From an uncultured delta proteobacterium (lineage in GTDB: Bacteria; Desulfobacterota; Desulfuromonadia; Geobacterales; DSM-12255): a stretch of DNA of 64,000 nt. Below the pieces are notes generated by a model. The model did not search any database. It was given only the letters and a program-made list of their open reading frames with translations, and had not been told where the DNA came from. Made by a program: the position numbers and the translations under genes. Location: NCBI GenBank assembly GCA_963787125.1, contig CAWBBV010000007.1, forward strand, positions 384,001 to 448,000, given 5' to 3'. This document shows positions 24,146-60,000 of the stretch, piece by piece. Every line of letters begins with the position of its first letter. Positions within the stretch are counted from its first letter, which is position 1.

Positions 24146-24207
24146 TGCCCCGTTTTTGTGCGTTAAATCCCCCGCCTGCAATCATCTATTCCCTCTTTAA
24201 AGTTGCT

Positions 24208-24364: not shown

Positions 24365-24438
24365 GGGTCGTGCTTAACAAAGGATGTCCTTGTTGTGAGC
24401 ATTCTCGCTAGAACACTACGATGCCGCCAACATAGTCC

Positions 24439-24476
24439 TTGTCATTTTTACCCTTTCTGATATTCTGAATTCAGAA
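24439..24476 (+). promoter_or_regulatory. Promoter and operator of TA module 2
   Basis: TTGTCA (24439), extended -10 TGaTATTCT (24458-24466) and the perfect palindrome TTCTGAATTCAGAA (24463-24476). Confidence 0.6.
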
Positions 24477-24489
24477 ATTAGAGGTTCCC

Positions 24490-24780
24490 ATGAAAGCAGC
24501 GGCTTGTTACAAGACAGAGGTTCGGCAAAGGGGCCAAGTGACCATACCGAAACGGATTCGTGACGCCAGCGGGTTTGATGAAGGGTGCGCAGTCACCATC
24601 ATCTCCTTGGGAGAGAGCATCTTATTGACTCCTAAGCGGCTTGAACTTGACGAAGCTCGGCGGGAGATCAGGAAAATCGTCCGCGCGACCGGGATGTCGG
24701 CTGACAAGGTTTTAGCCGGACTTGGCGAGGAGCGGCAATCGCTCTTTGAGGAACTGTATGGCGCGAAAAACCCCGAATAA
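24490..24780 (+). CDS. AbrB/MazE/SpoVT-family antitoxin
   Basis: TEVRQRGQVTIPKRIRD..G swapped-hairpin signature. Confidence 0.85.
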   Translation: MKAAACYKTEVRQRGQVTIPKRIRDASGFDEGCAVTIISLGESILLTPKRLELDEARREIRKIVRATGMSADKVLAGLGEERQSLFEELYGAKNPE

Positions 24781-25216
24781 CCGCGTTTTCCTCGACTCCA
24801 ATGTAATCATCTCCGGCCTCCTATCAGACAAGGGCGCCCCTCGAATAATTCTCGATCTGCTTTGCCTGCATCTTCCCCATCTCAACGGGCTGACCGGTCG
24901 TTACAACTTGCTGGAGGTTGAGCGGAACCTGCAACGCAAGCTGCCATTGGCCCTACCGGTTTTTCACGAATACTTCCCGCGCATGAATATGGAGATCATA
25001 CCCCTGCCGACGCCCATGGAACTTGACCCGTGGTTTGGCATCACCGCCGACAAGGACGTGCCGGTGATCGTTTCTGCAATCATTGGGAAAGCGGATTTTC
25101 TTGTAACCGGCGACCACAAGGACTTTGGATCGTTAAAGACGAATAAGAGATTGCCGTTCAGGATAGTTACTCCAAGCGAGTTTGTAGATTGTGTCAGTAG
25201 TCTGGTCGGGCAGTAA
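24758..25216 (+). CDS. PIN-domain toxin (PIN_3-like)
   Basis: RVFLDSNVIISG...E...DKDVPVIVSA...ADFLVTGDHKDF...IVTPSEF; overlaps the antitoxin 3' end. Confidence 0.85.
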   Translation: MARKTPNNRVFLDSNVIISGLLSDKGAPRIILDLLCLHLPHLNGLTGRYNLLEVERNLQRKLPLALPVFHEYFPRMNMEIIPLPTPMELDPWFGITADKDVPVIVSAIIGKADFLVTGDHKDFGSLKTNKRLPFRIVTPSEFVDCVSSLVGQ

Positions 25217-40326: not shown

Positions 40327-41169
40327 GTGAGCTATTTTAGTAAAACAAAGGCAGTGTCAGTTTCGATGATGGTAACCCTTTTGGCCGGGTGCGGCAATTT
40401 CGAGTGGTTTCCGCAGAACAGCGCCTTCACTAATCATTCAACCGCTTCATCATCTGTAACACAGCCAGGAACTGTTATGCGGGAGTTACCTTTCCCCGCA
40501 ACAGTAAAATGGGTCAGCGATATCTCTTATGACAAGAGCAATGCGACATTCTGGCTGCTAGCCTGGACAGGGTTGGCGATACCCCCTAATGCCCCCAATG
40601 CTCTGGTCAAGATCAATGCGACGACCGGCGCCTACATAAGTAAGGTTGATGCGAGCAGTTGGCCGTTCACGATCCTTGACGGCAGCACACTTGCCTATGA
40701 CGGGTCATTCTTCTGGATTACCAGCAATGGCAGCAACAGCGGGGTAGTGGCAAGCGAAGTCTACCAGATCAGGTGGGATGGTTCGTATAGCAACACCTAT
40801 CCTTGCCTGTCTACCAGCACCGGGTTCTGCCGGGGGGTTGCGTTTGACGCGGCGACATCCTCGTACTGGACTGCCGGTTCTGACACTGCCAATCTGGTCA
40901 ATTATCAGGTTGCGGGCAGTACGTATTCATCCAGCGTCACGTATTCGAACAACCTTTATTCCGGCGCCAGTGACGTCGCTTTTGATTCCGCAACCAATGA
41001 GGTTTTTGTCGTTAATAACGGGATAGTAAGGGTAAATAAAAGCAGCGGAGCTTATCTCAGCAGCATCCCGTTTACTCTTCCCGGGACGGGGAGAGGGGAT
41101 TGGGATGGAACCTATCTCTGGGTGGTAGATAACAGCTCTAAGTCGATAAAGGCACTTTTTGTGAGATAA
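40327..41169 (+). CDS. Lipoprotein, probable beta-propeller, function unknown
   Basis: Lipobox LLAGC; blade-like repeats LAYDGSFFW, VAFDAATSSYW, VAFDSATNEVF and WDGTYLWVVD. Confidence 0.7.
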   Translation: MSYFSKTKAVSVSMMVTLLAGCGNFEWFPQNSAFTNHSTASSSVTQPGTVMRELPFPATVKWVSDISYDKSNATFWLLAWTGLAIPPNAPNALVKINATTGAYISKVDASSWPFTILDGSTLAYDGSFFWITSNGSNSGVVASEVYQIRWDGSYSNTYPCLSTSTGFCRGVAFDAATSSYWTAGSDTANLVNYQVAGSTYSSSVTYSNNLYSGASDVAFDSATNEVFVVNNGIVRVNKSSGAYLSSIPFTLPGTGRGDWDGTYLWVVDNSSKSIKALFVR

Positions 41170-41175
41170 ACCGGT

Positions 41176-43410
41176 TTAAATAGAATAGCCTATCCGGAAC
41201 GCGCCCCAATGTTCTCCATCGATAAAGACGGGGGCGGAGATGTCCCACATCTTCTCTCCCGTGTCGCGGTTATATGTCTGCACGAGGACACCCTCAAGGT
41301 TATGTGCCCCGTTCAACCCAACCGGATCATTGAACATCCGTTTTGTCCGGTTACCAAGCTTGTCTTTTTCTATGTTGCCGGTCAGAGGTTTGCTGAATTT
41401 GGTGTTGTGTGTCGGCAGGTAGCCATTTTTGTCAACCAGGACGGCAAAGACAACCTGATCGTCCAGTTGCAGAAATTTATCAAGGGGTTGCTGGATATTA
41501 AGATCAGTGTAGCTGTCGTATGCTGTATGATATTTTTGCGGGTCAGTCCCCGGAATTGGGATGTAGTTAGTGTCGAACAGTTGAGACCGGGTCAGATGGC
41601 CTTTGGCAAGTGCTGCCGATAATATTTCAACCATTATGGAGGCACCCTCAGCGGCGCTTTTGCAGCCTTTTTCCTGGATCTCATGTTCCAGCAGGTTTCT
41701 CAGCTTCTCTGACAACTCCTTAATGTTGAGAATGGCTAAATCGGTTTCGCCGGTGGTGTCCGCGACTTGATGAGCTGCATCTCTCACTTCATTCATAGTT
41801 TCGGCAATCTGCTGGCAGGCTGAGGTCTGCTGTTTGGTCGAAAGCGTTATCTCTTTTGCAGTCTGGGCGGTTTTTTCAACAACTTTCATGAGTTGCGCAA
41901 ACGATAGATCTACTTTCTCAACCTGCCTGCCCGAGGCTTCAACACCTTTAGAGCCCTCTACTGTCAGTGTGATGGTGTTGTCTGTCGCCAGCCGTATTTC
42001 AGTGATCAACTCTCTGATCTGTCTGGTGGCGTTGACTGTGCGCTCAGCCAAACGTCGTACCTCTTTGGCAACCACGGCAAACCTTTTACCATGCTCACCG
42101 GCACCAGTGGACTCTATGGCGGCATTCAGGGCAAGAAGGTTTGTCTGATCGCTGATGCCGTCAATAATTTCAATAATCCCGCCGATTCGCTGACTGTCTT
42201 CGCCAAGTCGGATCATGCTCTTTGTTATCTCCGCTACCTGCGACTTTAATAATTCCATGCCGTCAATTGCAGCACTTACATCTGCAGAACCGGAAATGCA
42301 GGTATTGTTGGCTTCATCGGCCCAATTCTCCACGAGTCCGGCATTGTTCATTATTTCTCTAGCAGTTATGGCAACTTCGCTGGCTGTTGCTGTGAGTTGC
42401 TGCACTGATGCTGCCAACTCGGTTGTCGACGACGACTGCTGAAAGCTGATTGTCGCTAATTGTTCAGATGAGCCTGCCAACTGGGAAACAGCGTCTTTAA
42501 TTGAGATGAAGAGTAACTTGCTTTTGCCGATCTCCAGTTTCAGGTTTTTCACAATTATTGAGGTCATCCTGTTGAAAGCGGCTGATACTGTGCCGATTTC
42601 ATCGTTACTGAGAACAGGGATCTCTTCTTCAAGTTGGCCGTCTGCAAGTCGTGTTACCGCCGCTGTCAACATATGCAGTGGTTTTATCAAAAGAGAAACT
42701 ACCGCGATGATTGTGAGCGAAGATATGACGAGCATGAGCAGCATCGCGGTAATGATGTGGCTTCTTAACTCGGCAATCCTTTTTTCAGTTTTAGCCATTG
42801 AAAATCCGACCCGAAATGCACCCCAATGTTTATCCTTGACATATACCGGGGCGGAGAAATCCCACATTACCTCACCGGTATCACGCTGATAATCCTGTTT
42901 GAGAAACTCGCCGACGTTTTTTACTGAGGCAAGACCGACAGGGTCATTGAAAATTCTTTTTGAACGGCTGAATGCCTTGTCTTTTTCAATATCACCTGTT
43001 TGTGGCAGTGAAAATTTGGAGTTGTGCGCCGGAGCGTAGCCGTTGCGATCAAGCAGGGCGGCATAAGCAATTTCGTCATCTTTAAGGAATGAGTCTTCTA
43101 TGGCCGGGATAATTTTTTCCAGATAGGCATCGTATTTTGTGTTGAATTTAGGTGGGTTGCTTCCGGGGATTGGAATATAGTTGCTGTCAAGTATCTCCTC
43201 AACTTTGAATTTTCCCTCTGCAACCGCCCTGTTAAGCACAGTCGTCATGCTTGCTGCGCCAGAAATCGCCAGGATACGTCCTTTTGCAAGGATTTCTGCA
43301 CGCATGGTTTCGCTGCGCCAGTTAACAAAATAAACGGTGAACGCAGACATAATAATAATCATGACGATTATAAGTATGCCGACAATTTTTACCGAGAGTT
43401 TTTTCGCCAT
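41176..43410 (-). CDS. Methyl-accepting chemotaxis protein with a duplicated sensor domain (periplasmic and C-terminal cytoplasmic copies)
   Basis: TM1-domain-TM2-HAMP-signalling ([35 protein letters not shown]), then a second copy of the periplasmic domain. Confidence 0.92.
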   Translation of the reverse strand: MAKKLSVKIVGILIIVMIIIMSAFTVYFVNWRSETMRAEILAKGRILAISGAASMTTVLNRAVAEGKFKVEEILDSNYIPIPGSNPPKFNTKYDAYLEKIIPAIEDSFLKDDEIAYAALLDRNGYAPAHNSKFSLPQTGDIEKDKAFSRSKRIFNDPVGLASVKNVGEFLKQDYQRDTGEVMWDFSAPVYVKDKHWGAFRVGFSMAKTEKRIAELRSHIITAMLLMLVISSLTIIAVVSLLIKPLHMLTAAVTRLADGQLEEEIPVLSNDEIGTVSAAFNRMTSIIVKNLKLEIGKSKLLFISIKDAVSQLAGSSEQLATISFQQSSSTTELAASVQQLTATASEVAITAREIMNNAGLVENWADEANNTCISGSADVSAAIDGMELLKSQVAEITKSMIRLGEDSQRIGGIIEIIDGISDQTNLLALNAAIESTGAGEHGKRFAVVAKEVRRLAERTVNATRQIRELITEIRLATDNTITLTVEGSKGVEASGRQVEKVDLSFAQLMKVVEKTAQTAKEITLSTKQQTSACQQIAETMNEVRDAAHQVADTTGETDLAILNIKELSEKLRNLLEHEIQEKGCKSAAEGASIMVEILSAALAKGHLTRSQLFDTNYIPIPGTDPQKYHTAYDSYTDLNIQQPLDKFLQLDDQVVFAVLVDKNGYLPTHNTKFSKPLTGNIEKDKLGNRTKRMFNDPVGLNGAHNLEGVLVQTYNRDTGEKMWDISAPVFIDGEHWGAFRIGYSI

Positions 43411-43668: not shown

Positions 43669-44505
43669 ATGGAACAGGTGAAACAGCTGGGTACGCTGCT
43701 GGTTGAGAAGGATATTATCTCAACCAAAACTCTTGAAAGGGCTCTTGTTCGGCAAAAGGGGAGTGGTAAGAGACTCGGTGTCGTGCTTGAAGAGATGGGC
43801 GTAATAACAGAAGAAGAGCTGGTGGATGCCCTCGGAAAGCAGTTCGGCTTCAAGACGGCCAAGGGTTTCGCCGGCTACTCATTCCCTCACGATATTTTAA
43901 AGCATATTCATGTGGATATGGCGGTTCAAAAACTGATCTTTCCGCTTAAGGTGCACGACGGTATGCTTGCCATTGCGGTTACGGATCCATTCGATCTTGA
44001 CACCTTTGATTTTTTGACGAAAAAGACCGGCATGAAGATTCTGCCGGTTTTGTCAACCAGAGAAGAGATAATGGCGGCAATAACAAACCACTATCTTAAA
44101 GGCAAAAGTGAAGCTTCGGGGCGGAAAAAGGTTTTAGTCGTTGATGACACTAGTACTGTAACTGCAATAATTGCAGCTGCTCTCAGTAAAGAGGGGTATG
44201 CAGTTTTTGAGGCAGGTGATGGTGTTGAAGGTCTCAAGTTGGCGATGGCAGAGAGACCTGACCTTATTATCTGTGACTCAATCATGCCAAGAATGGACGG
44301 ATTTGCCATGATGAGAGCCATCAGGGCAAATCCAGCGACAGCTTCAATCCCTGCCATTCTTTTGACGTCAAAAGCAAGCGGGGAAGATGAACAACGTGCA
44401 TTTGAAGCAGGGTTCCTCGATTTTGTGCCAAAACCGGTCCAGCCAATCAGGATCATTTCAAGGGTAAAGCGGGCTTTTACCCTGATTACGGCCATGAAAA
44501 AGTAA
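43669..44505 (+). CDS. MshEN (T2SSE_N) domain plus response regulator receiver
   Basis: QLGTLL...LERALVRQ and RLGVVL...LVDALGKQ tandem motifs, AVTDPFD, then VVDD...CDSIMPRMDG...LTS...PKP. Confidence 0.85.
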   Translation: MEQVKQLGTLLVEKDIISTKTLERALVRQKGSGKRLGVVLEEMGVITEEELVDALGKQFGFKTAKGFAGYSFPHDILKHIHVDMAVQKLIFPLKVHDGMLAIAVTDPFDLDTFDFLTKKTGMKILPVLSTREEIMAAITNHYLKGKSEASGRKKVLVVDDTSTVTAIIAAALSKEGYAVFEAGDGVEGLKLAMAERPDLIICDSIMPRMDGFAMMRAIRANPATASIPAILLTSKASGEDEQRAFEAGFLDFVPKPVQPIRIISRVKRAFTLITAMKK

Positions 44506-44508
44506 TTT

Positions 44509-45453
44509 TCAGAACTGAAGATTGGGTCTGAAGACGAAGGTAAAACTGTTATTGTCTTTGTCTCTCAAGCTACCTGAATAACTTCTGTTATTCTGCCAGA
44601 TCATCCCAAAATCAACTTTTAACGCCACCATGTAATCTGTCAGCGGCAGTTTCTTCCCGATTATATACTCCTGCCTCAGAAGATTTCCATCAGCCAGGCC
44701 GAAGTCCCATCTGAAGTCAAAGCTACTGTTCTTGAGCCATGAAAGCGCTGATGAGTTGAAGTCGAGGTTACTCCTTCTCAGTCCCAGATAGGCAACGTCA
44801 GCAATCTCGGGATTTTCGTGGAGTTTTGAGCCCAACCTGAAACTCCAACTCAGCTTTTCATCGCTGAAGTTTCTTTCGCCTTTCATTTTCCACTCTATTT
44901 CAACCAATTTGTCATTTATAAGGACATTGTTCTTGATATGCTGATCTGCAAAGGTGAAGAGATACCCCATATAACCTTTGTTAGAGCCGTTACGGGCTTC
45001 ATCCGGCTTTACAAAAGTGACAACGTCACCGAAAAAAATCGAAAAGGAGTAAGGCTCCTGAAAACCTGCTGTTATCGCAGTAATAAGGTTAAGGTCGTCG
45101 CCAAAGCCGGCGCTGTCGTAAAAGCTGCGATTATTTTTTTTCAGGTATGTTCCGAGTAGCGGCATTGGAAAAAGGCTGGCTTCAAGCAGTACGAATCTGG
45201 GAGTGAGTGAGCCGAGGAAGAGCTTTTTGTAAACAGCCCCTTCATCAGATTCACCTATGTCTGGTATCGCTTTATCGGTAAGGGGAATGTGGAGTCCAAG
45301 GCTGGAGTAATATGCATCCAGCTCTGGAGTCAGTTCCATTTTTGCTTTGCCGGTGTTGACGATAGGTGCTGCCGGAGGGTTTTCGGCTGATAACAGTTTA
45401 AGCGGTGTCAGTAAAGTCAGGACGCATAAAATTGATAAGATGCGGCGGTGCAC
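44509..45453 (-). CDS. Secreted or outer-membrane hypothetical protein
   Basis: Signal peptide, amphipathic beta-strands and C-terminal Phe (FVFRPNLQF). Confidence 0.6.
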   Translation of the reverse strand: MHRRILSILCVLTLLTPLKLLSAENPPAAPIVNTGKAKMELTPELDAYYSSLGLHIPLTDKAIPDIGESDEGAVYKKLFLGSLTPRFVLLEASLFPMPLLGTYLKKNNRSFYDSAGFGDDLNLITAITAGFQEPYSFSIFFGDVVTFVKPDEARNGSNKGYMGYLFTFADQHIKNNVLINDKLVEIEWKMKGERNFSDEKLSWSFRLGSKLHENPEIADVAYLGLRRSNLDFNSSALSWLKNSSFDFRWDFGLADGNLLRQEYIIGKKLPLTDYMVALKVDFGMIWQNNRSYSGSLRDKDNNSFTFVFRPNLQF

Positions 45454-45620
45454 TTATTTCTCGCCGGACTTCAGGTAGAAATAGATAATCAGCAAAAATG
45501 GAAGCGGCATGAATGCCGCTTCCAGATTCCCTTTGAAAAGTTGCCAGGTTGCGAAGCAGACGAGGCCAATTGTGAAGAGTATGGTTAAAAATGCGGGGAG
45601 TTTTCTTGTTAACATCTAAC

Positions 45621-46691
45621 TTAGTTGTCGTAAGTGAGTTTGCGCTCAAGATCCATTGAATGGGAAAGCCTCTTAGCATCCTCCATAGAGATGATATCCT
45701 GCCGGTAGAGCTGCAACAGATGCTGGTCCAGGGTCTGCATCTGGTAGAGAGACTGCCCGTTTTCAATATGTTTTTCAATCTCCTCGAGTCTGCCTTCGCG
45801 AATGCATGTCTGGATAGTTGTTGTGGATCTCATGATTTCGACTACCGGTAAGATCCTTTCGCCGGTTTTGTCTTTTATAAGCCTTAAGGAGACAACTGCG
45901 ACAAGAATGTCGGCAAGTCGCTGCCGCACAATCTCTTGAGATTCCGGCGGGAAGTTGCCGAGGAGTCTGTTAATTGTTGATACAGCGCTCTGGGTGTGAA
46001 GAGTTGAAAAAACCAGATGTCCTGTCTCGGCAGCTTTTATGCACGAGTCGATGGTCTCCTTGTCTCGCAGTTCGCCAACCATTATGACGTCCGGGTCCAT
46101 TCTGAGCGATGCTTTGAGGGCGGCATTAAAGTCAATAGTGTCAATGCCCACTTCACGCTGGATAATGCAGCTGCGTTGCGATGTGAACAGGAATTCAATA
46201 GGATCTTCTATGGTAATGATGTTGTAAGTCTGGCTTTCGTTCAATAGCCGTATCATTGATGCAAGCGTAGTGGACTTGCCGTTGCCTGTCGGCCCGGTTA
46301 CAAGAATCAGCCCGTTGGGCGCCTTTACGATTTCAGCGAGAATCGGCGGCAGATTAAGCTCTTCAAGTGTACCGATGTGCGGAGGGATGACGCGCATGAT
46401 TATGCCAAAGTTTCCTCGCTGCCTGAAAATGCTGACGCGAAATCTCCCGCCGGTCGGCAGAGCGTAAGAGGCATCGAGCTCCTTCATGTCATTGAGCAGT
46501 TTGCGACCGTTATGTTCCATAACAGTCGTCGCGATGAACTCGGTGTCCTTGGGGGTCAAATTCGGTAGTTTGGAGCGGATAAGCTGACCTCTTCCGCGGA
46601 AGAAAGGGGGATTGTCCACTTCAAAGTGGAGGTCAGAGACTTTTTTCTGAAATGCGATGTCCAGGATTTGATTAAGTATTTTTGCGTCCAT
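45621..46691 (-). CDS. pilT: PilT/PilU family retraction ATPase paralogue
   Basis: SDLH, GPTGNGKSTT, TIEDPIE, QREVG.D, DPDVIMVGELRD, ETGHLVFSTLHT and MQTLDQ. Confidence 0.88.
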   Translation of the reverse strand: MDAKILNQILDIAFQKKVSDLHFEVDNPPFFRGRGQLIRSKLPNLTPKDTEFIATTVMEHNGRKLLNDMKELDASYALPTGGRFRVSIFRQRGNFGIIMRVIPPHIGTLEELNLPPILAEIVKAPNGLILVTGPTGNGKSTTLASMIRLLNESQTYNIITIEDPIEFLFTSQRSCIIQREVGIDTIDFNAALKASLRMDPDVIMVGELRDKETIDSCIKAAETGHLVFSTLHTQSAVSTINRLLGNFPPESQEIVRQRLADILVAVVSLRLIKDKTGERILPVVEIMRSTTTIQTCIREGRLEEIEKHIENGQSLYQMQTLDQHLLQLYRQDIISMEDAKRLSHSMDLERKLTYDN

Positions 46692-46744
46692 GGGTAGATC
46701 CTTCCCTGTGTTAAAAGTCAGTTGAGCTCAACAGCCTGCAGTTA

Positions 46745-48496
46745 TCAATGCTGAGATTGAAGCATTTTCTCGAATTTTTTTCGGTAAAGCGCGTTTTCAT
46801 ATACAACTCCGGCATGTGCTACGAGTGTCAATATCATGTCAGAATCAACAGCTGTCGGTTGCCTGGAGCCAAAATCTCCATATGTTACTGCCAGAACTCT
46901 GCCCAGGCATTTAAAAGGGACCACTATAAACTGTCTAGTCGTCGGCGGTTCGATTTGACTGTAAATCTTTTCAGCCAGGAGCTGATTGTTGCTTTCTCCC
47001 GAGAAAATAGTTCCACTCGAAACGGCTTGATGCAGCGGAGAGTCACCTTCCAGCGGCATACTGATAGCGAGTGGCTCAATAGTCGCTGAAGTAGAGATGC
47101 TGTCGCAAATCAGTTCGGATCTACGCACCACAAAAGTGACGGCACGAACCATGACAGTGGCTACATATCGGTCGATTACCGCTGTAATTTCATTGAGCTC
47201 TCTCTGCGTAGTCATTTTGCGCATAGCTTCTGTGAAAATATCGGGTAGAGCTGTTCCCATCTTTGCCGGGGAAACTTTCAGGCATTTTTTCACAGTTTCG
47301 AGAAAATAGATCGAGTCTTCTACAAAAGAGTCTTTTCGCAGGATATTGTCAGGCTTCGGAATCGCTGCACGGGCTCCTGAGCGCATTACATCGAGAGTGC
47401 CTCTGTAGTTGCCACTGTTTGTCAGATGAAAAACAGGAAGCCCCGGGTGTTTTTCTAAAATCCTTGAGGTCAAACCGGCCAAGTCCACGAGAGAAGGTTG
47501 TTGCGGCTGGTCGAGAAGTATCACAGGCAGCAGCTGTTTTGAAAGTGACTGATTGATTATAAGGTCGAGGTGATCTTCTTCGTCGGTAGAAAAGGTAAAG
47601 AACCCCTCCTGTTTGCAAGCGGTCATAACGGTGTGACGGATGAATTCAGAGCTGCTGAAAATTATCAGGGCATGGGTTGTTACCTGAGAATGTTCACCAG
47701 TGTCGCCAACAGCGTTAATAACAGTTTTCGAAAGGTAGGAAAAGAGCTGTTCTTGTTGCTCTTGAGGGATATTGTCGAGAGAAGCGCCGGTCTTGTCCCG
47801 GTGAATAATCGTCGGGTCGTGTATCTTGACCGGGGTGAAAAATCCGGGGATCACCTTTTCCAGGTCATCCATAACATCCAGACCAAGATCGTCGATTGAA
47901 ATGATCTGATCGTTGTCAGCTGACGAGGTCTGGTTAAAAGAGTCCTGATGCTCTTCTTCCCGCTGGAATGTATCTTCCATCAACGTGCCGTCACGTTTCT
48001 TTTCATCATAGATGCGCAGGGCATCCATAAGCACATTCTGGGTGTTCAGATTCAAATTCTCAGGGATGTAACGATATTCATCTGAAATTACGGTTGCATC
48101 AACATCAAGCTCAAAAGTCCCTTCAGTCCAGGTGAGCACTTCAACAATTGTCAGCTCGATGAGTGTCTCAAGCCCTTTAAAAGCATCTTCCTTCTTGAGG
48201 TTGCCGCTCTCAATCAACGAAGCAATCAGAGGTATCCTCTCGGCGCCGGCTCGTTTTTGCTCGGCAAGAGTTGCATCAAGGGTCTCGCGGGAGATTTTGT
48301 TCATCTGGACAAGTATCTGGCCGATGCGAACACTATTATTTGAATGATTTGCGCTGACAATGCCGCCATTACTAAAGACGAGCTGACTCTCCCCTTTACT
48401 GCTCTTAAGGCAGAGAGTGCCGGATTTCCTGGTAGCGTGAAGCAGTTGGATTACGTCCACAATGGGGAGATGCTCAAGATCACCGACAAATGACAT
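46745..48496 (-). CDS. DUF4388 (PATAN-like) domain protein with MshEN-like motif, degenerate receiver and GAF-like C-terminus
   Basis: MSFVGDL..L.IVDVIQLL...RKSGTL, RIGQILV....I....L...L.EQ, W.EGTF.L and ..LMDALRIYDE. Confidence 0.78.
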   Translation of the reverse strand: MSFVGDLEHLPIVDVIQLLHATRKSGTLCLKSSKGESQLVFSNGGIVSANHSNNSVRIGQILVQMNKISRETLDATLAEQKRAGAERIPLIASLIESGNLKKEDAFKGLETLIELTIVEVLTWTEGTFELDVDATVISDEYRYIPENLNLNTQNVLMDALRIYDEKKRDGTLMEDTFQREEEHQDSFNQTSSADNDQIISIDDLGLDVMDDLEKVIPGFFTPVKIHDPTIIHRDKTGASLDNIPQEQQEQLFSYLSKTVINAVGDTGEHSQVTTHALIIFSSSEFIRHTVMTACKQEGFFTFSTDEEDHLDLIINQSLSKQLLPVILLDQPQQPSLVDLAGLTSRILEKHPGLPVFHLTNSGNYRGTLDVMRSGARAAIPKPDNILRKDSFVEDSIYFLETVKKCLKVSPAKMGTALPDIFTEAMRKMTTQRELNEITAVIDRYVATVMVRAVTFVVRRSELICDSISTSATIEPLAISMPLEGDSPLHQAVSSGTIFSGESNNQLLAEKIYSQIEPPTTRQFIVVPFKCLGRVLAVTYGDFGSRQPTAVDSDMILTLVAHAGVVYENALYRKKFEKMLQSQH

Positions 48497-48591
48497 TCGC
48501 TGCAGACCTCTCAATTAGTCTAATTGTTTGCACACTATAGCGCTAACTGTCACTCCGATTCAAGAAGCTTTTCATTATGAGAAAAGAAGAT

Positions 48592-48658: not shown

Positions 48659-50328
48659 GTGTCCATCCGGAAACCCCAGTTTAAGACGTACTGGACCTCC
48701 GGTCGCTGTTGGCAGTCTCTGCTTCGGAAGATTTTGACTACCACGTAACCAGTTTTATCTGCTCTTTCTCAATTTAATGACGCACTACACCCGTCGAGAT
48801 GCTTTTCGCTGCTGCTTTTGCCTTTTTAAGCCGCTTCCAGCTTGATCCGGGCTATGACCTGAAGGTTGTAGGCAAAGATCGAACTCCAGACATAACGTCT
48901 GAATCCTTCCCAACCTTTCCAGGTGCAGCGGTCAAGCCCGAAAGCTCTCTTGAGTGTGGAGATGTTGGCTTCGATACCGGCACGGAAGTTCCGCAACTTC
49001 TTGTACACCCAGGAACTCTTGGCCATGTCGATTACCGATAACCCGCGCTTCTTGGCAAAAACAGCGTCTTTTACGCCAAGGCCTTTTGCTTCCGTCAGGT
49101 TATCCTTCGATGCAAAGCCACCATCAGCACTTACCTGGCGCGGCACCCTGCGGAAGACCCCTTTGTACCGCTCCAGCATAGGGATGTATTGATCCGAGTC
49201 AGCCGGGTTGCCTTTGGCAATCAGGCAGTCAAGGATCAGGTTGGACTTGCCGCCGGTCAGAAATATCTTGTGGCCGAAGTGGGTCTCACGCCTCTTCTTG
49301 ACGATGATGTCGGTGTGGTCCTCAAAGAAGGATGTCACTTTATCTGATGCCGGCACCTTCTCGTTATGGAATACCCGTCGTTCGGTCTGACTGATAACCT
49401 TTTCCAGTAGACCCACTGCCCGTTTCAGCTGTGCGGCAAGATTCATGGCTGCAAGCATGTCACCAAGACCGTTTGCCTGGTACGCCTGCAGAGCCGGAAT
49501 CGCTTTATTGGCATAGCCGACAACCTTGCCCGCGTAGTGCGTCATGTCACGATAGGCCGAGACTCTATCCTCTTGTTTCTTGGCGTTGAGAATCACCATA
49601 AGCCGTTTCTTGACAACACGGCAATGGTCGCAATAGCTGTAGTCAGGACGGGGAGTAAGGGCATGACCCTCCTCAAGCCAACGGGTGATGACCCTGATCC
49701 CATCCCAGAGCAAGGTGGAATCAGAGGGATCATGAATGTTACTTTCGACAACGGTCGAGTCAATCCTGACTTTACGACCGGTTTCTATGCCGGCTTCCAT
49801 GGCATACTGCATGAGGCAGATATGAACTGCCTCCCAGGTCTCTTCGGAAAGCGGCTTGATGTTTTCCTGAAGAGTCGATGACGACGGATACTGTCCCATC
49901 TCCAGTCGGGCAAAGGCACGAAAGGATTTGGAATCTTCAAGATGAAACGCGAGCTCTTCATAAGAGAGGCTGCGAAACTGTTTCAGGACAACGCAGCGCA
50001 GCACCTGTTCTGCGGTCAGTCCCTCCCGGCCGGTATCCTGACGAGACTCTCTTGTCAGGTCGGAGAACACCAGATCAAGCATCTGGGGAGTGGCGTCGAG
50101 AATAGAAGAAATTGCTGCCAACTCTTTACCAATATCGTGACGCATGGTGACAGAGAAAAGGCTCATCTGTCGTGTCAGTTTTTGTCGCATCCGGAGTACC
50201 CCTGAAACCATAATGTGCAATGTTTACAGCTTGTTATGGTTTCAGGATAGCATAAAACGAGATAAAACTGAACCACTTTATGCAAAATATCTTAACAATT
50301 TCATCCGGTTATCTTTCCGGATGGAAAC
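48659..50328 (-). mobile_element. Complete insertion sequence, 1670 bp, ISNCY (ISDol1-like)
   Basis: Terminal IRs GTGTCCATCCGGAAA (48659-48673) and TTTCCGGATGGAAAC (50314-50328), 14/15 match. Flanked by direct repeat TAATTA (48653-48658 and 50329-50334). One transposase. Confidence 0.9.
48826..50190 (-). CDS. DDE transposase (ISNCY type)
   Basis: RIDSTVVE.NIH.P.DS.LL, FEDHTDIIVK..R...FGHK, ADGGFAS and RNFRAGIEANIS.LKR.FGL.RC.WKG; uninterrupted ORF. Confidence 0.9.
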   Translation of the reverse strand: MRQKLTRQMSLFSVTMRHDIGKELAAISSILDATPQMLDLVFSDLTRESRQDTGREGLTAEQVLRCVVLKQFRSLSYEELAFHLEDSKSFRAFARLEMGQYPSSSTLQENIKPLSEETWEAVHICLMQYAMEAGIETGRKVRIDSTVVESNIHDPSDSTLLWDGIRVITRWLEEGHALTPRPDYSYCDHCRVVKKRLMVILNAKKQEDRVSAYRDMTHYAGKVVGYANKAIPALQAYQANGLGDMLAAMNLAAQLKRAVGLLEKVISQTERRVFHNEKVPASDKVTSFFEDHTDIIVKKRRETHFGHKIFLTGGKSNLILDCLIAKGNPADSDQYIPMLERYKGVFRRVPRQVSADGGFASKDNLTEAKGLGVKDAVFAKKRGLSVIDMAKSSWVYKKLRNFRAGIEANISTLKRAFGLDRCTWKGWEGFRRYVWSSIFAYNLQVIARIKLEAA

Positions 50329-53794: not shown

Positions 53795-54053
53795 TACTTG
53801 TAAAGAGAGGGGCTATTTAACCGTTTTATGGCGTAGTAGTGTATGGCAGACTGCGAGCCCTTACTTAAGTAAAAAGTTGATTAAATTAAGTAGTTTAGAT
53901 CGGTTTCAGTTGTAAACGTTCAGTAAAAAAAACTGGCGGAAATGAAGCCTATCTAGCTATTTTTATTGATGTTTCACGGCATTCAGCTAATTAACGATTA
54001 AGATATCAGTGACAATATATTTGTACTCGTAACCGAGAGGGAGGTAATTGAAG

Positions 54054-57000
54054 ATGGGAAAATTACTCGTGAATAAAATCCGAGAGATAAATCCACTGGC
54101 AAAAAGGGGGACGTTGTTTTTACTGGCGCTCCTTGTCTCCTTCATAAGTATAATCGGCCCTAATACTGCCGAAGCCGCTATCAGTGTGCAGCAAGGCTTT
54201 GTAGCAGGCGCTACTGCATACAATGTAGGCAATACAACCGGTTTTTACAAAGGGACAACTTTTCCGGGGGCTGCTGTAGTCGGAACAATTGCGGTGGGCG
54301 CCGGTAATGACCGGCTGCTTGTTGTTGCGGTGACAACGGGACTATCGGCAGTTGCTACCCAGACCTGCACAGTGACTTACAATGCTGTGAGCATGACGCA
54401 GGCGACTGGCGACGGTGCAACATCTGCCCGGCAGCACTCCTATCTCTTTTATCTTCCTATGGGTTCTTCAGTCTCCGCAGGTGCAGCATACAGGCCGGTA
54501 GTCACTATAACCGGCGGAACTGCTCAGACTGCAGTTGTCACTTCAGCAGTTTATGCCGGTGTTGATCAGACAACGGTTATAAGGCAAGCCAAGAGTTATA
54601 ATGGCGGCACCAGTACAACAACAACAGTCGGGCCTTTTGCAGCGCCGCTGATGGCTATAACCGCCGGCGACAGAGCTGTTGAGGTGGTAAATCTGTACAG
54701 GACGACCAGCGCTACCCCGCGGACGATGACCACCTGGGCAGCCGGTTGGGCAGTAACTGCCGACATGGCTGGTACTTATGCCCCGTACACTCAGGCCAGC
54801 ATTACCACCACCTCTATGAATACTTATATTCGCAGTAATACAACAGTCACGGCCGGCACCAACTCCTCGCATATTTCCAATGGCACAGCGCGTAAATCTA
54901 TGCATGCGATGGTACTGATCCCGACAGGGGTTACGGTAAGCGCCGGTTCTGTTGTACCTAATCAGACGGTATATGCGGGTGATACTGCAAAAGTTGTTAA
55001 TGCCTTTACTCTGGCTGGTTCCGGACCGGTCACTGCGATTACAGTCACCGGTAATGCCAATACGACAGCAGCAAACATTGCGTCAATTAATATATACAGA
55101 AAAGTCGGCTCGAACCTGACAGCGCTTGAAGGCACAGACGTGCTGATCGGTACCGGCTCTTTCCCTTCGCCGGCAACAGTTACAGTAGCTGAGACTGTCT
55201 CTGCTACGACTAATTATATTATTGTCTACAATATTGCCGCTTCAGCCATCGCCAACGGCACTTCTATAACATTCACTGGTGCAGTAACTGCCCTTACTCC
55301 GGCGGCCGCTTCAATTGCCGATACCGGCGAGACACTGACTCTCTATCCGACCACGACTATAGAGACAGGTGTAGAACCACCGGCAGCCAGATTGTGGAAA
55401 TCAAGTGCTGCCACCAATATGGATGCATTTACGTTACAGCATAATGGCGCCGTTACCGATAATGATACTATCTCGCCGGTAACTGTAACCTTGATTCCTC
55501 AGTACATTTCAGGCGGCACCGGTGGCACGATCTCCAAAATAAAACTGATGGAGATTGTCAGCGCCGACGGTCTGACGGTTTATGGTTCTGCCACTGCCGC
55601 AGCAAACGGCGATATCTGGAATATCACGACGCCGGCATTAATTGCTGATTCTACCCTTAAAACATATTACGTGCGAGTATCGACAGCCGACGTAATTACA
55701 CCTTCGCTTAACGATACCTCCGGCACTCCTCAGGGTTATTACACTTTCACCGGGACGATAACTGCCGCAACTCATAACAAGGCGAACAATAAATTAGTTA
55801 TGGGCGACGGCACCAGCCAGACTCTGGAAATTGACCTTGAGAAACCGATTGGGCCGGCATCTGCAACTGCAACTACCGGCACAAGCGGCGGGCAAATTGA
55901 TCTAGTCTGGGATGCTGCTTCTGATTACAGTGGTGGTTCGCTTGACGCAACAGCTCCATTCGTTGTTCGTCGCGATTTCGTAGATCCTGACCCCGGCTGC
56001 AAAAGCGGCACGGCAGTTACACTTACTCCTGCAAATCAAGCTTCTCATAGCATGACCGATACAGGACTGATTGACACGACCCCTACCAGGTATTACTACC
56101 GGGTATGCGCCATGGATGCACTAGGCAATATCAGTGACGGCGCATCGTCATTTGCAAATGCAATGGTAACCAGTGTTTGCAATATACCACCTTCTGTTAC
56201 TCTTGCGTACGAAGACGGGTCTACAACAGCGACTATGCAGTTGATTAAATCGGATACTACAAGTGCTCCATTTAGATTGCAGATAGCAAACAATGACATT
56301 GGTACCTGTCCTGATGTTGCTTTCACCGTCAGCCTGGCAAATGTTGTCGGAAATGATAGTCATTTCACGAAAACTATTGGTGGTCTGTCCTTCCCGGGCC
56401 TGATCACATTAGGTACCGGTGGTGCCGGCGCAAGTACAGGAAAGGCCTTACTTGTACAAGTTTCCGGGATTGAAGCTGCCGGTGCGCAACAACTTGAGAA
56501 GTATACATTCGGAGTTACTGTTACTTCGCCGGGTAACAGTCATGGCGCTGCTATCACGACTCCATCAGTAACCGGTCTCTTGAACGACATGCCCCCGATT
56601 GTTCACAATAGCGCTAACATGGCCAAATACCAGTATGGCAGTTGGGGCCAAACATATACCTGTGCTACTTGTCACTCAAACAGCACAACCAATATCAAGG
56701 GTATTTATCAGATCATCTCTACTCCAATCGGCAGAAGAAATGTTGTTTTTAATAAAACATCATCTGTTGATGCTGACTGGGACGGAGTTTACGGCAATGA
56801 CAAGCGTGCAAATAAGGACGTTTCCAACAGTGTCTGCGAAGTGTGTCATCACCAGACCAGGCAGCACCAGTATAGTGCCAGTAAACCCTTAGCCGGCCCA
56901 GGTGCTAATGAAACATACAATCCTGATCACCACAACAGTCGTGATTGCGTAAAATGCCATACTCATAACACAGCCTTCCGCTCGATATATGGACTTTGTG

Positions 57001-60000
57001 GTGACTGCCACGGTTTCAAGGCAACAGGTTACTCGCCTGTTGACAGAAGTACCATGGTTAAGGATCTTACCAATGCCCTTGGGCCTAATCCGCCGAACTA
57101 CGGCGCTCACGCAAGGCATAATCAGGCAAAGATTACCTGTTCTGCATGTCATAGCAATACCAATCATGGCTTGGCTACAACCGCCTGGTCCGGCAATAAC
57201 TTTCTCGAAATCGACTTTAATACCAGTAAAGACTCCTACACCGGATTCAACCCCAACGCCAGTATCGTCGGTGGTACCTTTGCCGGCACAAATAACCTCA
57301 ACCAGCCTTTCAAATGGTCGTCGAATCTGTCCACAGTCATTACTGCCAGTCCTGATTATAATGCTTCCTGTACCAACTACTGCCACGGAGCCTGGTTAAA
57401 CAACACCGGTTCGAACACAAATCCAATCTGGGTTGGTGGTCCCGCGCAGGCTGCCTGCGGTACCTGCCATAATGCCTCTGCTGAAGTTCCTCCCCAGTCC
57501 GGCAGCCACTTGAAACATGCCTTAAACTCTGGGATCGGTCTTGGTATAGCCTGTAACAAATGCCATGGCAGCTACTCTAACTATAGTACCAGTAACGCTC
57601 ATATCAATGGCAACGTCGAGTGGAATTTGTCGGTTTATCCTGGCGCAACCTACAACGGTGTAGCAGCTGGTTCTACCGGTGCTCAGGCACCAACAGCCAA
57701 CGCCAATTACGGAACATGCAGCACGCTCTACTGCCACAGTAAAGTTCAGGGGGCTGGGGGTGTAGGAAACCCAAGCACATACGCTTCTCCTAAATGGGGT
57801 GACCCAACAACAGCAACTTGCGGCTCATGCCACGCTGCTAATCCGAATAACTCCGGTTCACACTTGAACCATGAGAATGCAGAAGTTGCTTTTGACTGCC
57901 ACGATTGCCATAGCAACGGTGGTACTACCACAGCTCTGAATCACGGTAATGGCAAAATTGATTTCAAGTTCGTTGGCCTTGCTTCAAATACAAAATACAT
58001 GAGTGTTACAACTGCCAGTGGCGGGTTTGTAACACCTGGTTCCGGTTACGGTGTCTGTTCAAGCAGTAACTGTCACGGCCGTTTCAACCGCGCCTGGGGT
58101 ACACCATCTTCCGGTTTGACACTTTGTGAAAAGTGCCACGGCTCAGCAAACTCATCCGTCGGCTTTTATAACACCAGAGGCCCGTTAGGGACACTCAGCG
58201 TCTACTCAGCCGGCGTTGGTGTTCATGATATTCACATCCAGAACCCTAATTCACCAAGAAAAGCGACTTTTGCACGCTTCACATCTTACGCAGCCGGTTA
58301 CAGTTGCAGGCAGTGTCATAATGTGCCGACCGGGCCGTTTACTGCCGGTCATATTGATACACCACTACCTGCTGAAGTTCCTTTCAGTCATGTCAGCTCG
58401 ATAGCCAACAAAGCCAGCACCTTTGGCTACATGTCCACTGCAACTTTTAACAATGCCACAAAAGCTTGTAGTAATGTCTACTGCCACGGTGCAGGGATGA
58501 ACTCCAACAGGAGCACTGGCAAGTATGTTGGCGCTGCTCCGACATTTGTCAAACAGGACCCAAGCTGGAATACACCTTATCTGACCGGTAACAGCGCAAC
58601 AGATTGCACCAAGTGTCACTCATATCCGCCACCGGCGCCTGATCCTACCTATACCCACTTTGGCGCAACTCTGGCTGATTGTGAAACCTGCCATCAGCAT
58701 CTGACTCCGGGCGGACTTGGGTTCAAGAATAAAAAACTGCACGTTGACGGTAAAGTTGATGGTGGCTGTGACTCTTGCCACGGTTATCCGCCGGTCAATA
58801 ATGTTGTCGGTGCTCCGGGCGGACTGGCAACACCGGCGCAAAACGCGCTTGCCGGCGGAGCAGGAGCTCACAATGCCCATATGCTGCTTCCGCAGCTGGC
58901 TGCCGACAAATGCAAGGCCTGTCATAACGGTTATACAACCGACCCAATGGGTAACACCAAACTGGAAATGGGCTTTAACGGGCTTGGCGGTCTGGTGACA
59001 ACCGGTACCTTTACCGGTTATACCAATAGCGTTAACGGGCCAAAATGGCAGATACCATCAAACAGTGCCGGGACTGTGATGGTCAAGTCTAACGTCCAGG
59101 CTGCTGTCTGCTCCAACGTTTACTGCCACGGTGGTGGGTCGTCATCTTCGCCGGTAGTCCGGCCAGCATTGGGTGGCGGAGCTAATACCACTCCAAACTG
59201 GGAAGTCCCTGCCGTCTGCGGCGACTGCCACGGCATTGACGCTGCCAGCGCACCAAGCGGCGGTTCACACCCAAGGCACGCCGTCACAATCTCATCACTT
59301 GTCTGTGACTCCTGTCATGGTGTTACTGCTGTCAACGGCACTCACGTTAACGCCTCAGTCAGCTGGCACCTTGATAGTACACTCATGGGTGCAAATGCCA
59401 CCTACAACGGGATGTCATCCGGATCGCTCCCGGGTCTGGCCCCCCGCGGAAATGTTACAGCCGGCGACGATTACAGAACCTGTAATAATGTTTATTGTCA
59501 CAGTACCATTCAGAGCGGAAACGGCACGGGCGTTCCCACCTACAAGTCGCCACGCTGGGGCACAGATAACGGCACACTCGGCTGTAACGGCTGCCATGCA
59601 AACATGGCGACGGATGCTGTCAATGCAACCGGCAGCCATGTGAAACATGCAAATACCACCTCAGGCATGGGCGTTTCCTGCGGCTACTGTCACCAGGATG
59701 GTGGCGACGGTACGCAGCAGCATGCGGACGGTTCTGTTTTCATAAACTTTACCAGCTATATTGGCGGCACCTACAATGTCAGCGGTGGTACCGCTTTCCT
59801 TACCGGTATTCAGAAGGTCTCCCGTTCGGCTGCCTACAGCACCTGTTCCACCACCTTCTGTCATGGAACAAACCCTTCACCGCAGTGGGGTGTAGCAGGC
59901 ACAAACTGCCAGACCTGTCACTCCGCCAGCGCTGATAAAACACTCAGCCCCGGCTGGTCAGGTCGTCACACTACCCACTATAACTACTCGACTGCGCCGG

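Follow-up and report, generated by a model that had tools for sequence, protein, structure and literature searches.

The 744-amino-acid (aa) methyl-accepting chemotaxis protein (MCP) P0001, encoded in the 64,000-nucleotide stretch of delta proteobacterial DNA analyzed here (the window), carries two homologous copies of one sensor domain, one predicted to be periplasmic and the other cytoplasmic. We estimate the probability at about one in two that this protein is a two-input chemoreceptor detecting a single class of ligand on each side of the membrane. An ordinary periplasmic sensor between two transmembrane (TM) helices would be combined with a second sensor of the same family, appended at the end of the cytoplasmic signaling hairpin. 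A receptor with the same sensor on either face of the membrane provides a defined system for studying how chemoreceptors merge external signals with the internal state.

Domain order and predicted topology

The gene is located on the minus strand, and its features are arranged as follows.

41176..43410, minus strand: whole gene of the 744-aa MCP (P0001), from the open reading frame list and its translation; stop codon at 41176-41178
43321..43389, minus strand: TM1, about aa 8-30, from the hydropathy scan (mean Kyte-Doolittle value up to 2.79); preceded by MAKKLSVK (three Lys)
42793..43320, minus strand: sensor domain copy 1, aa 31-206, predicted periplasmic; HMM match at 31-206, between TM1 and TM2
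42682..42759, minus strand: TM2, about aa 218-243, from the hydropathy scan (mean Kyte-Doolittle value up to 2.84)
42562..42696, minus strand: HAMP, aa 239-283; Pfam PF00672, E value of 1.3e-11, 45.1 bits against a 25-bit cutoff
41782..42246, minus strand: MCP signaling domain, aa 389-543; Pfam PF00015, E value of 4.3e-35, 121.5 bits against a cutoff of 34.6
41179..41706, minus strand: sensor domain copy 2, aa 569-744, C-terminal, predicted cytoplasmic; HMM match at 569-744

The membrane topology was derived from a Kyte-Doolittle scan with a 19-aa window, combined with domain logic. Only two hydrophobic segments were detected (about aa 8-30 and 218-243), and no 19-aa window past aa 250 exceeded a value of 1.08. 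Together with the Pfam matches, the scan gave the class I order of TM1, sensor, TM2, and HAMP. Copy 1 is predicted to be periplasmic because it is located between TM1 and TM2, with HAMP directly after TM2, as in the standard MCP topology. Copy 2 is predicted to be cytoplasmic because it follows the cytoplasmic signaling domain without a further TM helix. The first-pass annotation of this DNA, made from the sequence alone, had placed copy 2 in the cytoplasm for the same reason, in agreement with the hydropathy profile and the Pfam domain order.

Membership in the MCP family was indicated by the PF00015 score above the cutoff, by the conserved hairpin tip motif at aa 429-441 (the tip itself at aa 435-438), and by a helix-turn-helix in the AF2 model with its turn at 435-438. 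The N-terminus of the protein agrees with the consensus of 44 orthologues, and its C-terminus coincides with the last beta strand of copy 2. By a rough count, about 285 residues separate the end of HAMP (aa 283) from the start of copy 2 (aa 569). The target and two paralogues belong to one length class, as judged from gap-free alignment, and we suspect that the heptad class of the signaling module is 40H.

Homology and fold of the two sensor copies

The similarity between the two copies is far above chance, and they are true homologues of one sensor family. A BLASTP comparison of aa 33-217 with aa 565-744 gave 86 identities over 171 positions (50%), 70% positives, one gap, and an E value of 8e-66. 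The homology between the periplasmic region and the C-terminal tail that had been noticed in the first-pass annotation was therefore recovered, and all of the motif pairs quoted there were found in both copies.

To compare copies by location, we used a signature set of 30 columns, each conserved at ≥85% in all four location classes (55 between-TM, 22 anchored, 13 dual-type C-terminal, and 63 other C-terminal copies). The N copy of the target retains 28 of the 30 signature residues, and the C copy retains all 30. In a set of 120 dual receptors, each signature residue was present in ≥85% of the N copies and ≥97% of the C copies. Sixty-nine columns were conserved with the identical residue in the N and C copies of these receptors, and one column differed (F versus Y). 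The earlier suggestion that both copies keep the conserved polar residues is in line with these counts. Mean pairwise identities among the dual orthologues were 0.59 (N domain), 0.64 (C domain), and 0.60 (HAMP); the two sensor domains are comparable to HAMP, and both copies therefore appear to be under constraint.

The two copies might have diverged to recognize different ligands, in which case the receptor would integrate two unrelated signals. Their identity, 50% in the target and 43 to 74% (median, 56%) within the 120 dual receptors, leaves room for such divergence, and the duplication is old, the C copies of dual receptors clustering together in both trees. However, the residue differs in only 1 of the 70 columns that are conserved in both copies, the change is conservative, and the C copy keeps all 30 signature columns and the N copy 28; we consider divergence to different ligands quite unlikely.

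Copy 2 could also have a non-sensing role. It may no longer sense and may instead have a structural or docking function, such as dimer or array packing, bracing of HAMP near the membrane, or tethering of CheR or CheB in place of the missing pentapeptide (the translation of the 744-aa MCP contains no C-terminal pentapeptide). The greater conservation of the C copies, with 19 columns conserved in C copies alone and 9 in N copies alone among the 120 dual receptors, would also suit a protein-protein interface. Additionally, copy 2 is attached through its first helix only and should sit beside HAMP, as described below. Nevertheless, the same 30 residues are conserved in the periplasmic copies of kinases and a phosphatase, where no Che protein is present, and C-terminal copies were found across many MCP backgrounds. 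A purely structural or docking function of copy 2 is, in our estimation, unlikely.

Structural models assign both copies to the single-Cache/PDC fold. The AF2 domain model of copy 2 (pLDDT, 96.1; pTM, 0.91) consists of a helix at residues 2-33 followed by an alpha/beta core. Its VIA matches included WalK (4ywz; Z, 13.1), CitA (8bgb; Z, 12.1), DctB (Z, 12.0), Adeh_3718 (4k08; Z, 11.2), and a formate chemoreceptor (8py0; Z, 10.6). The top 30 or more VIA matches were Cache/PDC sensors with Z scores of 8 to 13, the best ones all being extracytoplasmic, and Foldseek concurred with VIA on the fold. The long N-terminal helix and the PAS-like five-stranded core that AF2 and VIA revealed are those of a single-Cache domain, consistent with the Cache/PAS-like domain named in the first-pass annotation. 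In the full-length AF2 model (monomer; pLDDT, 83.3; pTM, 0.38), the order of helices and strands in copy 1 equals that in copy 2. The extracytoplasmic location typical of Cache domains applies to copy 1 and not to copy 2, according to hydropathy and the Pfam order.

At the sequence level, no Pfam or NCBIfam model covered the sensor domain in a search with the whole protein, and no curated Cache model in Pfam matched the target at its gathering score. Subthreshold Pfam matches of the whole protein were located at aa 182-216 (sCache_3_2, 15.9 bits with a cutoff of 28.4; PocR, 21.6 bits with a cutoff of 23.9). Copy 2 alone matched no Pfam family at E values up to 0.1. Of the 42 family members, 9 touched sCache_3_2 at E values up to 0.1 (best E value, 6.6e-4). 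No Pfam PAS model matched the target at E values up to 1 or any of the 42 domain sequences at E values up to 0.1, and the family profile matched no PDB sequence at E values up to 10. Naming of the domain through the ESM Atlas was rejected, as the first matches were "hypothetical" clusters without Pfam annotation, followed by Cache families at scores of ≤0.86.

The 42-row domain alignment covers several phyla, with 41 to 60% identity to the C copy of the target, and its invariant residues include His, Asp, Arg, and Lys. Such strong conservation is unusual among Cache families and would be compatible with a bound cofactor or metal, through which the domain would report a state (redox, metal availability, or pH) and not a diffusible metabolite. 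Cofactor-bearing Cache domains, as reported in the Cache_heme preprints, provide a precedent. However, neither the target protein nor the alignment contains CXXCH or another recognizable cofactor motif, and the top fold matches bind ligands and have no cofactor. We regard a cofactor- or metal-based sensor as very unlikely. The invariant polar residues could be structural, forming salt bridges instead of a pocket. Candidate pocket residues, given as copy 1/copy 2 pairs, are H129/H668, R149-K151-R152/R688-K690-R691, R176/R715, D184/D723, and R200/R739.

Distribution of the domain, paralogues, and gene neighborhood

The domain family comprises 2024 clusters at 50% identity, and its layouts include a periplasmic sensor, a C-terminal cytoplasmic sensor, or both. 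Among the best 150 of the 2024 representatives, 77 have the domain at the C-terminus only, after the signaling domain, and 32 have it between TM helices only; the former count accords with the statement in the first-pass annotation that the domain occurs singly at MCP C-termini. The dual N-plus-C layout was found in at least 137 clusters at 90% identity among those listed (119 of the 120 best matches, P0121, and 17 further proteins). A dual gene is present in 7 of the 23 genomes of the window's family, and the dual form is widespread in Geobacterales and Desulfuromonadales. The dual layout is thus conserved in many relatives. MCPs with a C-terminal sensor are an already known class, to which the pairing of a periplasmic and a cytoplasmic sensor of the same family is an added feature.

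Architecture and neighborhood were examined at 75 of about 600 or more genomic loci. Outside the MCPs described above, histidine kinases, a SpoIIE phosphatase, and HAMP-GAF and HAMP-only proteins use the domain as their periplasmic input, and MCPs whose periplasmic sensor is of another type (sCache_3_3, dCache_1, or 4HB) contain it as a cytoplasmic module. The domain has been relocated between periplasm and cytoplasm several times, with its signature residues kept. A second inside-plus-outside design was found in P0098, in which copy 1 lies between the TM helices, copy 2 lies directly after TM2, and the copies are 67% identical. Among 417 matches to P0098, no full-length relative outscored the Geobacterales dual receptors (464 bits versus 941 bits for the self match), and only a fragment, P0123, resembles its design, which appears to be rare.

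The dual gene of the window is an orphan located outside the che operon of its own genome; that operon carries a 578-aa paralogue with the periplasmic copy only. The HAMP-signaling region of the target is 58% identical to that of the 578-aa paralogue and 51% identical to that of a paralogue with the C copy only, and both alignments are gap-free over all 325 aa. Its identity to every other MCP of the genome is 34% at most. One genome accordingly encodes outside-only, inside-only, and both-sides receptors of one signaling class, which may serve as natural controls for one another.

The operon with this receptor class encodes REC-CheR-TPR, CheW, one MCP, CheA-REC, CheB, and a single-domain REC. 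At three of the seven dual loci examined (L016, L017, and L019; Desulfuromonadales), the dual MCP itself occupies the operon, between CheR-TPR/CheW and CheA-REC/CheB; this is not the case at L005, L006, L007, and L009. From the sequence similarity and the operon position at these three loci, we assign the target to the CheA-REC/CheR-TPR operon as its probable pathway.

Few clues to the ligand came from the surrounding genes: no shared transporter or enzyme was found near the window gene, six loci with stand-alone copies, or the paralogues. The C-copy-only paralogue adjoins 2-hydroxyacid dehydrogenase and glycolate-oxidase-like genes, a single case. Of the window gene's neighbors, those encoding MshEN-REC, a 280-aa protein, a TonB-like protein, and TerC are retained only at L006 and L007 among the seven dual loci. 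The nearby PilT-like and DUF4388 genes were rejected as parts of the system because neighbors are kept at just two of the seven dual loci, to which synteny is limited. A sequencing-run look-up for the sequence returned six DNA metagenome runs with small shares and no RNA run.

Proposed mechanism and relation to known systems

The full-length AF2 model suggests how two inputs could reach one signaling hairpin. Helix 5-64 passes from TM1 directly into the first sensor helix of copy 1, and helix 205-256 links the last strand of copy 1, TM2, and HAMP. The arms of the hairpin are helices 271-434 and 439-603, joined by the turn at 435-438. Helix 439-603 is unbroken from the hairpin tip into copy 2, so that the first helix of copy 2 is continuous with the C-arm. 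The output of copy 1 would be classical, from TM2 through HAMP to the N-arm of the four-helix bundle, while copy 2, whose long first helix directly continues the C-arm, would act on that arm. The N-arm (271-434) and the C-arm (439-603) are equal in length, and the core of copy 2 should for this reason be placed next to HAMP, just under the membrane, a position deduced from helix lengths alone. Copy 2 is joined via its N-terminal helix only and periplasmic copies signal via their C-terminal end; hence, the output mechanics of the two copies cannot match.

In the two-input reading that we favor, both copies would bind the same small ligand. The many invariant Arg, Lys, His, and Asp residues point to a ligand that is a small anion or a metal-anion species and would occur on both membrane sides. 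Control of the hybrid CheA-REC kinase would then depend on both the external and the internal ligand pools; one possibility is that the internal supply gates taxis toward the external compound. Adaptation would proceed normally via CheR and CheB. The methylation-independent feedback proposed in the first-pass annotation found no support, as the cognate operon encodes CheR and CheB.

A stricter version is a true transmembrane comparator, in which the two copies bind the same species with opposite effects on the kinase and the output is the outside-minus-inside difference of a ligand, pH, or an ion. Signature residues are shared by the two sides, the inputs enter two antiparallel arms of one bundle in the AF2 model, P0098 represents a second, independent inside-plus-outside design, and the three receptor types of one signaling class coexist in one genome. 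However, the domain is useful alone, most members among the best 150 being one-sided; receptors of the P0098 design are rare (417 matches included no close full-length relative); and temporal comparison is already supplied by the CheR and CheB of the operon. We regard a comparator as improbable. The same holds for its fullest form, with arms of opposite sign, steering by the external-internal difference of one species (a nutrient anion, a metal, or protons), and a domain representing a new Cache family with the unusual property of functioning equally well in the periplasm and the cytoplasm. The sign of the inputs and gradient sensing by such a comparator are purely conjectural. If it were true, the cell would read a transmembrane gradient, or its own need, directly from the receptor.

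Once the ligand is identified, more than two thousand protein clusters would gain a function, and the input of a Frz/Wsp-like pathway in metal-reducing Geobacterales and Desulfuromonadales would also be named. Extracellular sensing in bacteria is ascribed mainly to Cache domains; according to PMC4822843, they are principally extracellular (78% predicted so), this location being typical and not strictly defining. In contrast, about half of the copies of the present family are cytoplasmic, and a family with copies on both sides calls such a division into question. Copy 1 has the position of classical single-Cache sensors, between two TM helices, and the fold is that of CitA/DcuS (sCache_3_2), WalK, and sCache_2 sensors, with a long helix at the N-terminus ahead of a PAS-like alpha/beta core. 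Sequence membership in these families fails, however, the sCache_3_2 score falling below its cutoff (15.9 versus 28.4 bits).

Chemoreceptors with a C-terminal ligand-binding domain (LBD) include TlpD, with a CZB domain, and DcrH, with a hemerythrin domain. In such receptors, as in the target (copy 2, aa 569-744), the signaling hairpin carries a sensor at its C-terminal end. MCPs with an LBD after the signaling domain are described in PMC7390727 as a recognized, poorly characterized subfamily, in which no fewer than 17 Pfam LBD types occur, with CZB as the most populated type. The target differs from them in that its C-terminal domain has a Cache fold without a Pfam model and is accompanied by a periplasmic copy of the same family. 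The first-pass annotation had presented the design as one without a known characterized example, and a full-text search of the open-access literature found no paper on the domain or on a receptor with the same domain inside and outside. The layout is less isolated than implied there, however, given the recognized C-terminal-LBD MCPs (PMC7390727) and the wide occurrence of the dual form.

The operon of this receptor class resembles Frz/Wsp-type pathways in gene content, with a CheA-CheY fusion and CheR-TPR (cf. Tran et al.). Unlike the receptors of those pathways, the dual gene of the window lies outside the operon and is tied to it by the 58% gap-free similarity. The CitA/DcuS histidine kinases have a periplasmic PASp domain and a cytoplasmic PASc domain, the latter being a transmitter next to TM2. 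Like the target, they carry a PAS-like fold on each membrane side. Their two domains belong to different families, whereas those of the target are 50% identical, with the inner copy at the far C-terminus.

The receptor and its sensor domain

The same domain occurs twice in the receptor, between two transmembrane (TM) helices and past the signaling domain, as proposed in the first-pass annotation and as BLASTP, Pfam, and hydropathy analyses agreed. Copy 1 and copy 2 are 50% identical over 171 aa with one gap (aa 33 to 217 versus aa 565 to 744; BLASTP E value, 8e-66).

Features of the receptor
41176..43410, minus strand: single long ORF, 744 aa (ORF list and translation)
aa ~8-30 and ~218-243: TM1 and TM2 (hydropathy, 19-residue window)
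aa 239-283: HAMP domain (Pfam)
aa 389-543: MCP signaling domain (Pfam)

Because the HAMP and signaling domains must be cytoplasmic, copy 1 is predicted to be periplasmic and copy 2 cytoplasmic. No hydrophobic segment was detected past aa 250 (hydropathy of ≤1.08 in a 19-residue scan). The last strand of copy 2 closes the translation, which lacks a C-terminal pentapeptide.

No curated sequence model in Pfam or NCBIfam covers the sensor domain. The last strands of copy 1 gave subthreshold Pfam scores for PocR (21.6 bits; cutoff, 23.9) and sCache_3_2 (15.9 bits; cutoff, 28.4), and NCBIfam returned just generic chemoreceptor and HAMP-kinase similarities to the receptor, all far under the cutoffs. 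Among 42 aligned family members, Pfam touched sCache_3_2 in 9, PocR in 3, and dCache_1 in 2; within this set, copy 2 of the receptor touched no Pfam family. The family profile matched no PDB sequence at E values up to 10. The AlphaFold2 model of copy 2 (42-row alignment; pLDDT, 96.1; pTM, 0.91) comprises a 32-residue N-terminal helix followed by an alpha/beta core. Its fold matches, found by Foldseek and independently by VIA, were extracytoplasmic Cache/PDC sensors, led by WalK (Z score, 13.1), CitA (12.1), and DctB (12.0), with sCache_2 chemoreceptor sensors and two formate chemoreceptor sensors also among the best. In the ESM Atlas, the domain fell among unnamed clusters; farther off lay Cache families including the intracellular YkuI_C. 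Judging from the predicted structure, the sensor domain is a single-Cache fold outside every described sequence family in the libraries searched.

A family used on both sides of the membrane

With copy 2 as the query, HMMER was run in full against 1.84 billion representatives and recovered 2,024 clusters at E values up to 1e-3 and 1,538 at E values up to 1e-10. The best 150 of the 2,024 clusters were classified by architecture using a domain HMM, an MCP-signal search, and hydropathy.

Position of the sensor domain in the best 150 of 2,024 clusters
Solely past the signaling domain: 77
Between two TM helices: 32
Single N-terminal helix anchor, domain at the very C terminus: 11
Other cytoplasmic positions: 5
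Periplasmic and C-terminal copies: 1 (P0121)
Periplasmic copy and copy just past TM2: 1 (P0098)
No label assignable: 23

In examples analyzed with Pfam, the outputs of the periplasmic form were MCPs, histidine kinases, a SpoIIE-type phosphatase, HAMP-GAF proteins, and HAMP-only proteins, and the cytoplasmic forms were found in MCPs with sCache_3_3, dCache_1, or four-helix-bundle sensors in the periplasm. Species-representative genomes, scanned by pattern, yielded at least 603 relatives among at least 606 matched stretches; hosts among the matches listed were Geobacterales, Desulfuromonadales, other Desulfobacterota, Chloroflexota, Pelotomaculum, and many Gamma- and Betaproteobacteria (e.g., Alteromonas, Colwellia, Azoarcus, and Zoogloea).

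A two-gene cassette recurred at loci L020 (2251-3786), L030 (2274-3783), and L059 (~2214-3783) and at about 20 further loci (e.g., L018, L022, L023, L025, L031, L032, L036, L038, L040, L041, L044, L048, L049, L053, L054, L056, and L079). Its first product (~200 aa) has a single hydrophobic helix at the N terminus plus one sensor copy; its second (~300 aa) is a TM-sensor-TM-HAMP protein without an output domain. Upstream of the cassette, in three of six loci inspected (L020, L030, and L059), lay genes for a REC-DUF4388 response regulator and an unnamed ~210- to 240-aa protein.

An HMM-guided alignment of 55 between-TM, 22 anchored, 13 dual-type C-terminal, and 63 other C-terminal copies contained 30 columns in which the same residue was ≥85% conserved in each of the four classes. 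This signature includes (copy 1/copy 2 of the receptor) Y78/Y616, K88/K626, D94/D632, D121/D660, Y125/Y664, P127/P666, H129/H668, N130/N669, R149/R688, K151/K690, R152/R691, Q172/Q711, Y174/Y713, R176/R715, D177/D716, D184/D723, H195/H734, W196/W735, and R200/R739. Copy 2 retains all 30 residues and copy 1 retains 28, deviating at L74 (for F) and E98 (for D). Across 120 dual receptors, i.e., those with both a periplasmic (N) and a C-terminal (C) copy, 69 columns were ≥80% conserved with an identical residue in both copies and a single column was conserved yet different (F versus Y); 19 columns were conserved in C copies only and 9 in N copies only. This comparison gave no sign of a systematic specificity shift between the two copies, and the inner copy appears, if anything, to be under more constraint than the outer one.

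Of the best 120 copy 2 matches from proteins of comparable length, 119 had the dual layout, the sole exception being P0098; P0121 shares it, as do 17 more proteins from a later search, for at least 137 clusters at 90% identity (685 to 781 aa). In the taxonomic family of the window, the sensor domain occurred in 16 of 23 genomes and a dual gene, recognized by paired matches separated by about 1.6 kb within a single open frame of 745 to 837 aa, in 7 of 23 genomes and three of seven genera. Desulfuromonadales also carry dual genes (L009, L016, L017, and L019). Mean pairwise identities among dual orthologues were 0.59 for copy 1 and 0.64 for copy 2, against 0.60 in HAMP and 0.78 in the region of the hairpin tip, a sequence pattern indicating that purifying constraint is acting on both copies.

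At least seven changes of side were needed in each of two trees (FastTree, 159 domain copies; IQ-TREE quick, 61 copies). Most C-terminal copies formed one large group, chiefly of ~550-aa proteobacterial MCPs. The C copies of dual receptors and of two C-only receptors (L003 and L015) fell inside a group (SH-aLRT, 96) consisting mostly of periplasmic copies of the same lineages; a distinct supported clade (98) comprised other C-terminal copies. Constraining all 31 C-terminal copies to one clade cost 60 log-likelihood units (AU test, P = 0.013); as this test was picked after the tree was seen, and weak branches are numerous in the quick trees, the evidence for a separate origin is moderate. The inner copy of the dual receptors seems to have derived from a periplasmic copy of their own lineage. 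P0098, a 1,089-aa MCP, carries copy 1 between TM1 and TM2 and copy 2 from about 30 residues past TM2, with 67% mutual identity; a full-length search found no close full-length relatives. It apparently represents a second inside-plus-outside design, independent of the dual receptors. A fragment, P0123, resembles this design.

Predicted wiring, signaling pathway, and genomic context

The full-length AlphaFold2 model of the receptor (44 orthologues; pLDDT, 83.3; pTM, 0.38, low as expected for a long monomer) is composed of the following segments.

Segments of the full-length model
Helix 5-64: TM1, continuous with helix 1 of copy 1
To aa 204: copy 1 core
Helix 205-256: TM2 and first HAMP helix
Helix 271-434, turn 435-438: N-arm and hairpin tip
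Helix 439-603, unbroken: C-arm from the hairpin tip, continuous with helix 1 of copy 2
To aa 743: copy 2 core

Since the modeled hairpin arms match in length (164 and 165 residues), the copy 2 core should lie level with HAMP, beneath the membrane, a placement read from helix lengths. Copy 1 would influence the N-arm by way of TM2 and HAMP, and copy 2 would act on the C-arm solely via its own first helix. That the same sensor with the same chemistry is present on both sides, as the first-pass annotation held, is well supported by sequence and predicted fold. Its further suggestion was a possible transmembrane comparator; opposite-sign comparison of the two inputs is an attractive minority reading that we consider improbable. 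The most likely mechanism, to which we assign a probability of about one-half, is a two-input receptor that would integrate the external and internal pools of one ligand.

In the genome of the window, CheA was matched six times and the MCP signal fifteen times; only three MCP genes there carry the sensor.

Sensor-bearing MCPs of the genome
744 aa (the receptor studied here): both sensor copies
578 aa: periplasmic copy only
704 aa: sCache_2/Cache_3-Cache_2-like periplasmic domain and C-terminal copy

Over all 325 residues of its HAMP-signaling region, the receptor aligns without gaps to the 578-aa (58%) and 704-aa (51%) paralogues; the remaining MCPs reach ≤34% in partial alignments, which argues that the three form one signaling class. 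A complete chemosensory operon (G000:C1, L080:8925-16691, minus strand) has the 578-aa paralogue as its sole MCP; it encodes REC-CheR-TPR, CheW, the MCP, a CheA-REC hybrid, CheB, and a single-domain REC. The same operon is kept in 10 other loci, around N-only orthologues (L008, L010 to L013, L042, and L057) or around a dual receptor itself (L016, L017, and L019). Because CheR and CheB are encoded, ordinary methylation-based adaptation is expected, and the methylation-independent feedback initially envisaged is unnecessary. In Tran et al. [quoted passage not shown]

The 704-aa paralogue lies within L081:4262-9980 (minus strand, G000:C2), directly downstream of genes for a D-2-hydroxyacid dehydrogenase, a CCG/4Fe-4S protein, and a glycolate-oxidase-like FAD-oxidase. 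These neighbors, a single case, may point to hydroxy-acid sensing.

A separate small che cluster lies about 26 kb from the receptor gene; its MCP is only 34% identical to the receptor in the signaling region.

Other genes in the window
9142-15442, plus strand: che cluster, including two REC proteins and a HEAT-repeat protein
10165-11838, plus: CheA
11825-12373, plus: CheW
12406-14706, plus: 767-aa MCP, 4HB_MCP_1 sensor
23723-24142, plus: PIN-domain ORF
24490-24777, plus: MazE-like antitoxin ORF, overlapping the next
24722-25213, plus: second PIN-domain ORF
40327-41169, plus: 280-aa ORF, no Pfam match
43669-44505, plus: MshEN-REC response regulator
44509-45453, minus: unnamed 314-aa ORF, no Pfam match
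45621-46691, minus: PilT/T2SSE-type ATPase
46745-48514, minus: 589-aa DUF4388 protein
48829-50220, minus: DDE transposase ORF (DDE_Tnp_1 and DUF772), about 300 bp from the DUF4388 gene
54048-62078, plus: 2,677-aa ORF
62099-64000, plus: ORF running off the window end

In the receptor's neighborhood (43669-48514), conservation was seen for the MshEN-REC gene only, in L006 and L007, in loci of ±3 kb, a span too small for the PilT-like and DUF4388 genes; the 280-aa ORF is kept beside the receptor in the same two loci. DUF4388 also recurs near stand-alone sensor copies. The ORFs at 54048-62078 and 62099-64000, both with cytochrome c7/c3 and Geobacter CxxxxCH...CXXCH motifs, look like giant multiheme cytochromes, and those at 23723-25213 are probable toxin-antitoxin modules.

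Comparison with known systems

Full-text literature searches found no description of a large, unnamed family of Cache folds that works on either side of the membrane, of a conserved receptor with such a domain on both sides at once, or of its link to a CheA-REC pathway; brief prior mention of each is possible. As far as the literature searched shows, all three are apparently new. According to PMC7390727, MCPs with a ligand-binding domain (LBD) past the signaling domain are a recognized, poorly characterized subfamily, with at least 17 Pfam LBD types reported at the C terminus, CZB being the commonest. Cache families are, according to PMC4822843, principally extracellular, and only two small ones are mainly intracellular, whereas the unnamed family described here is divided about equally between the two sides of the membrane.
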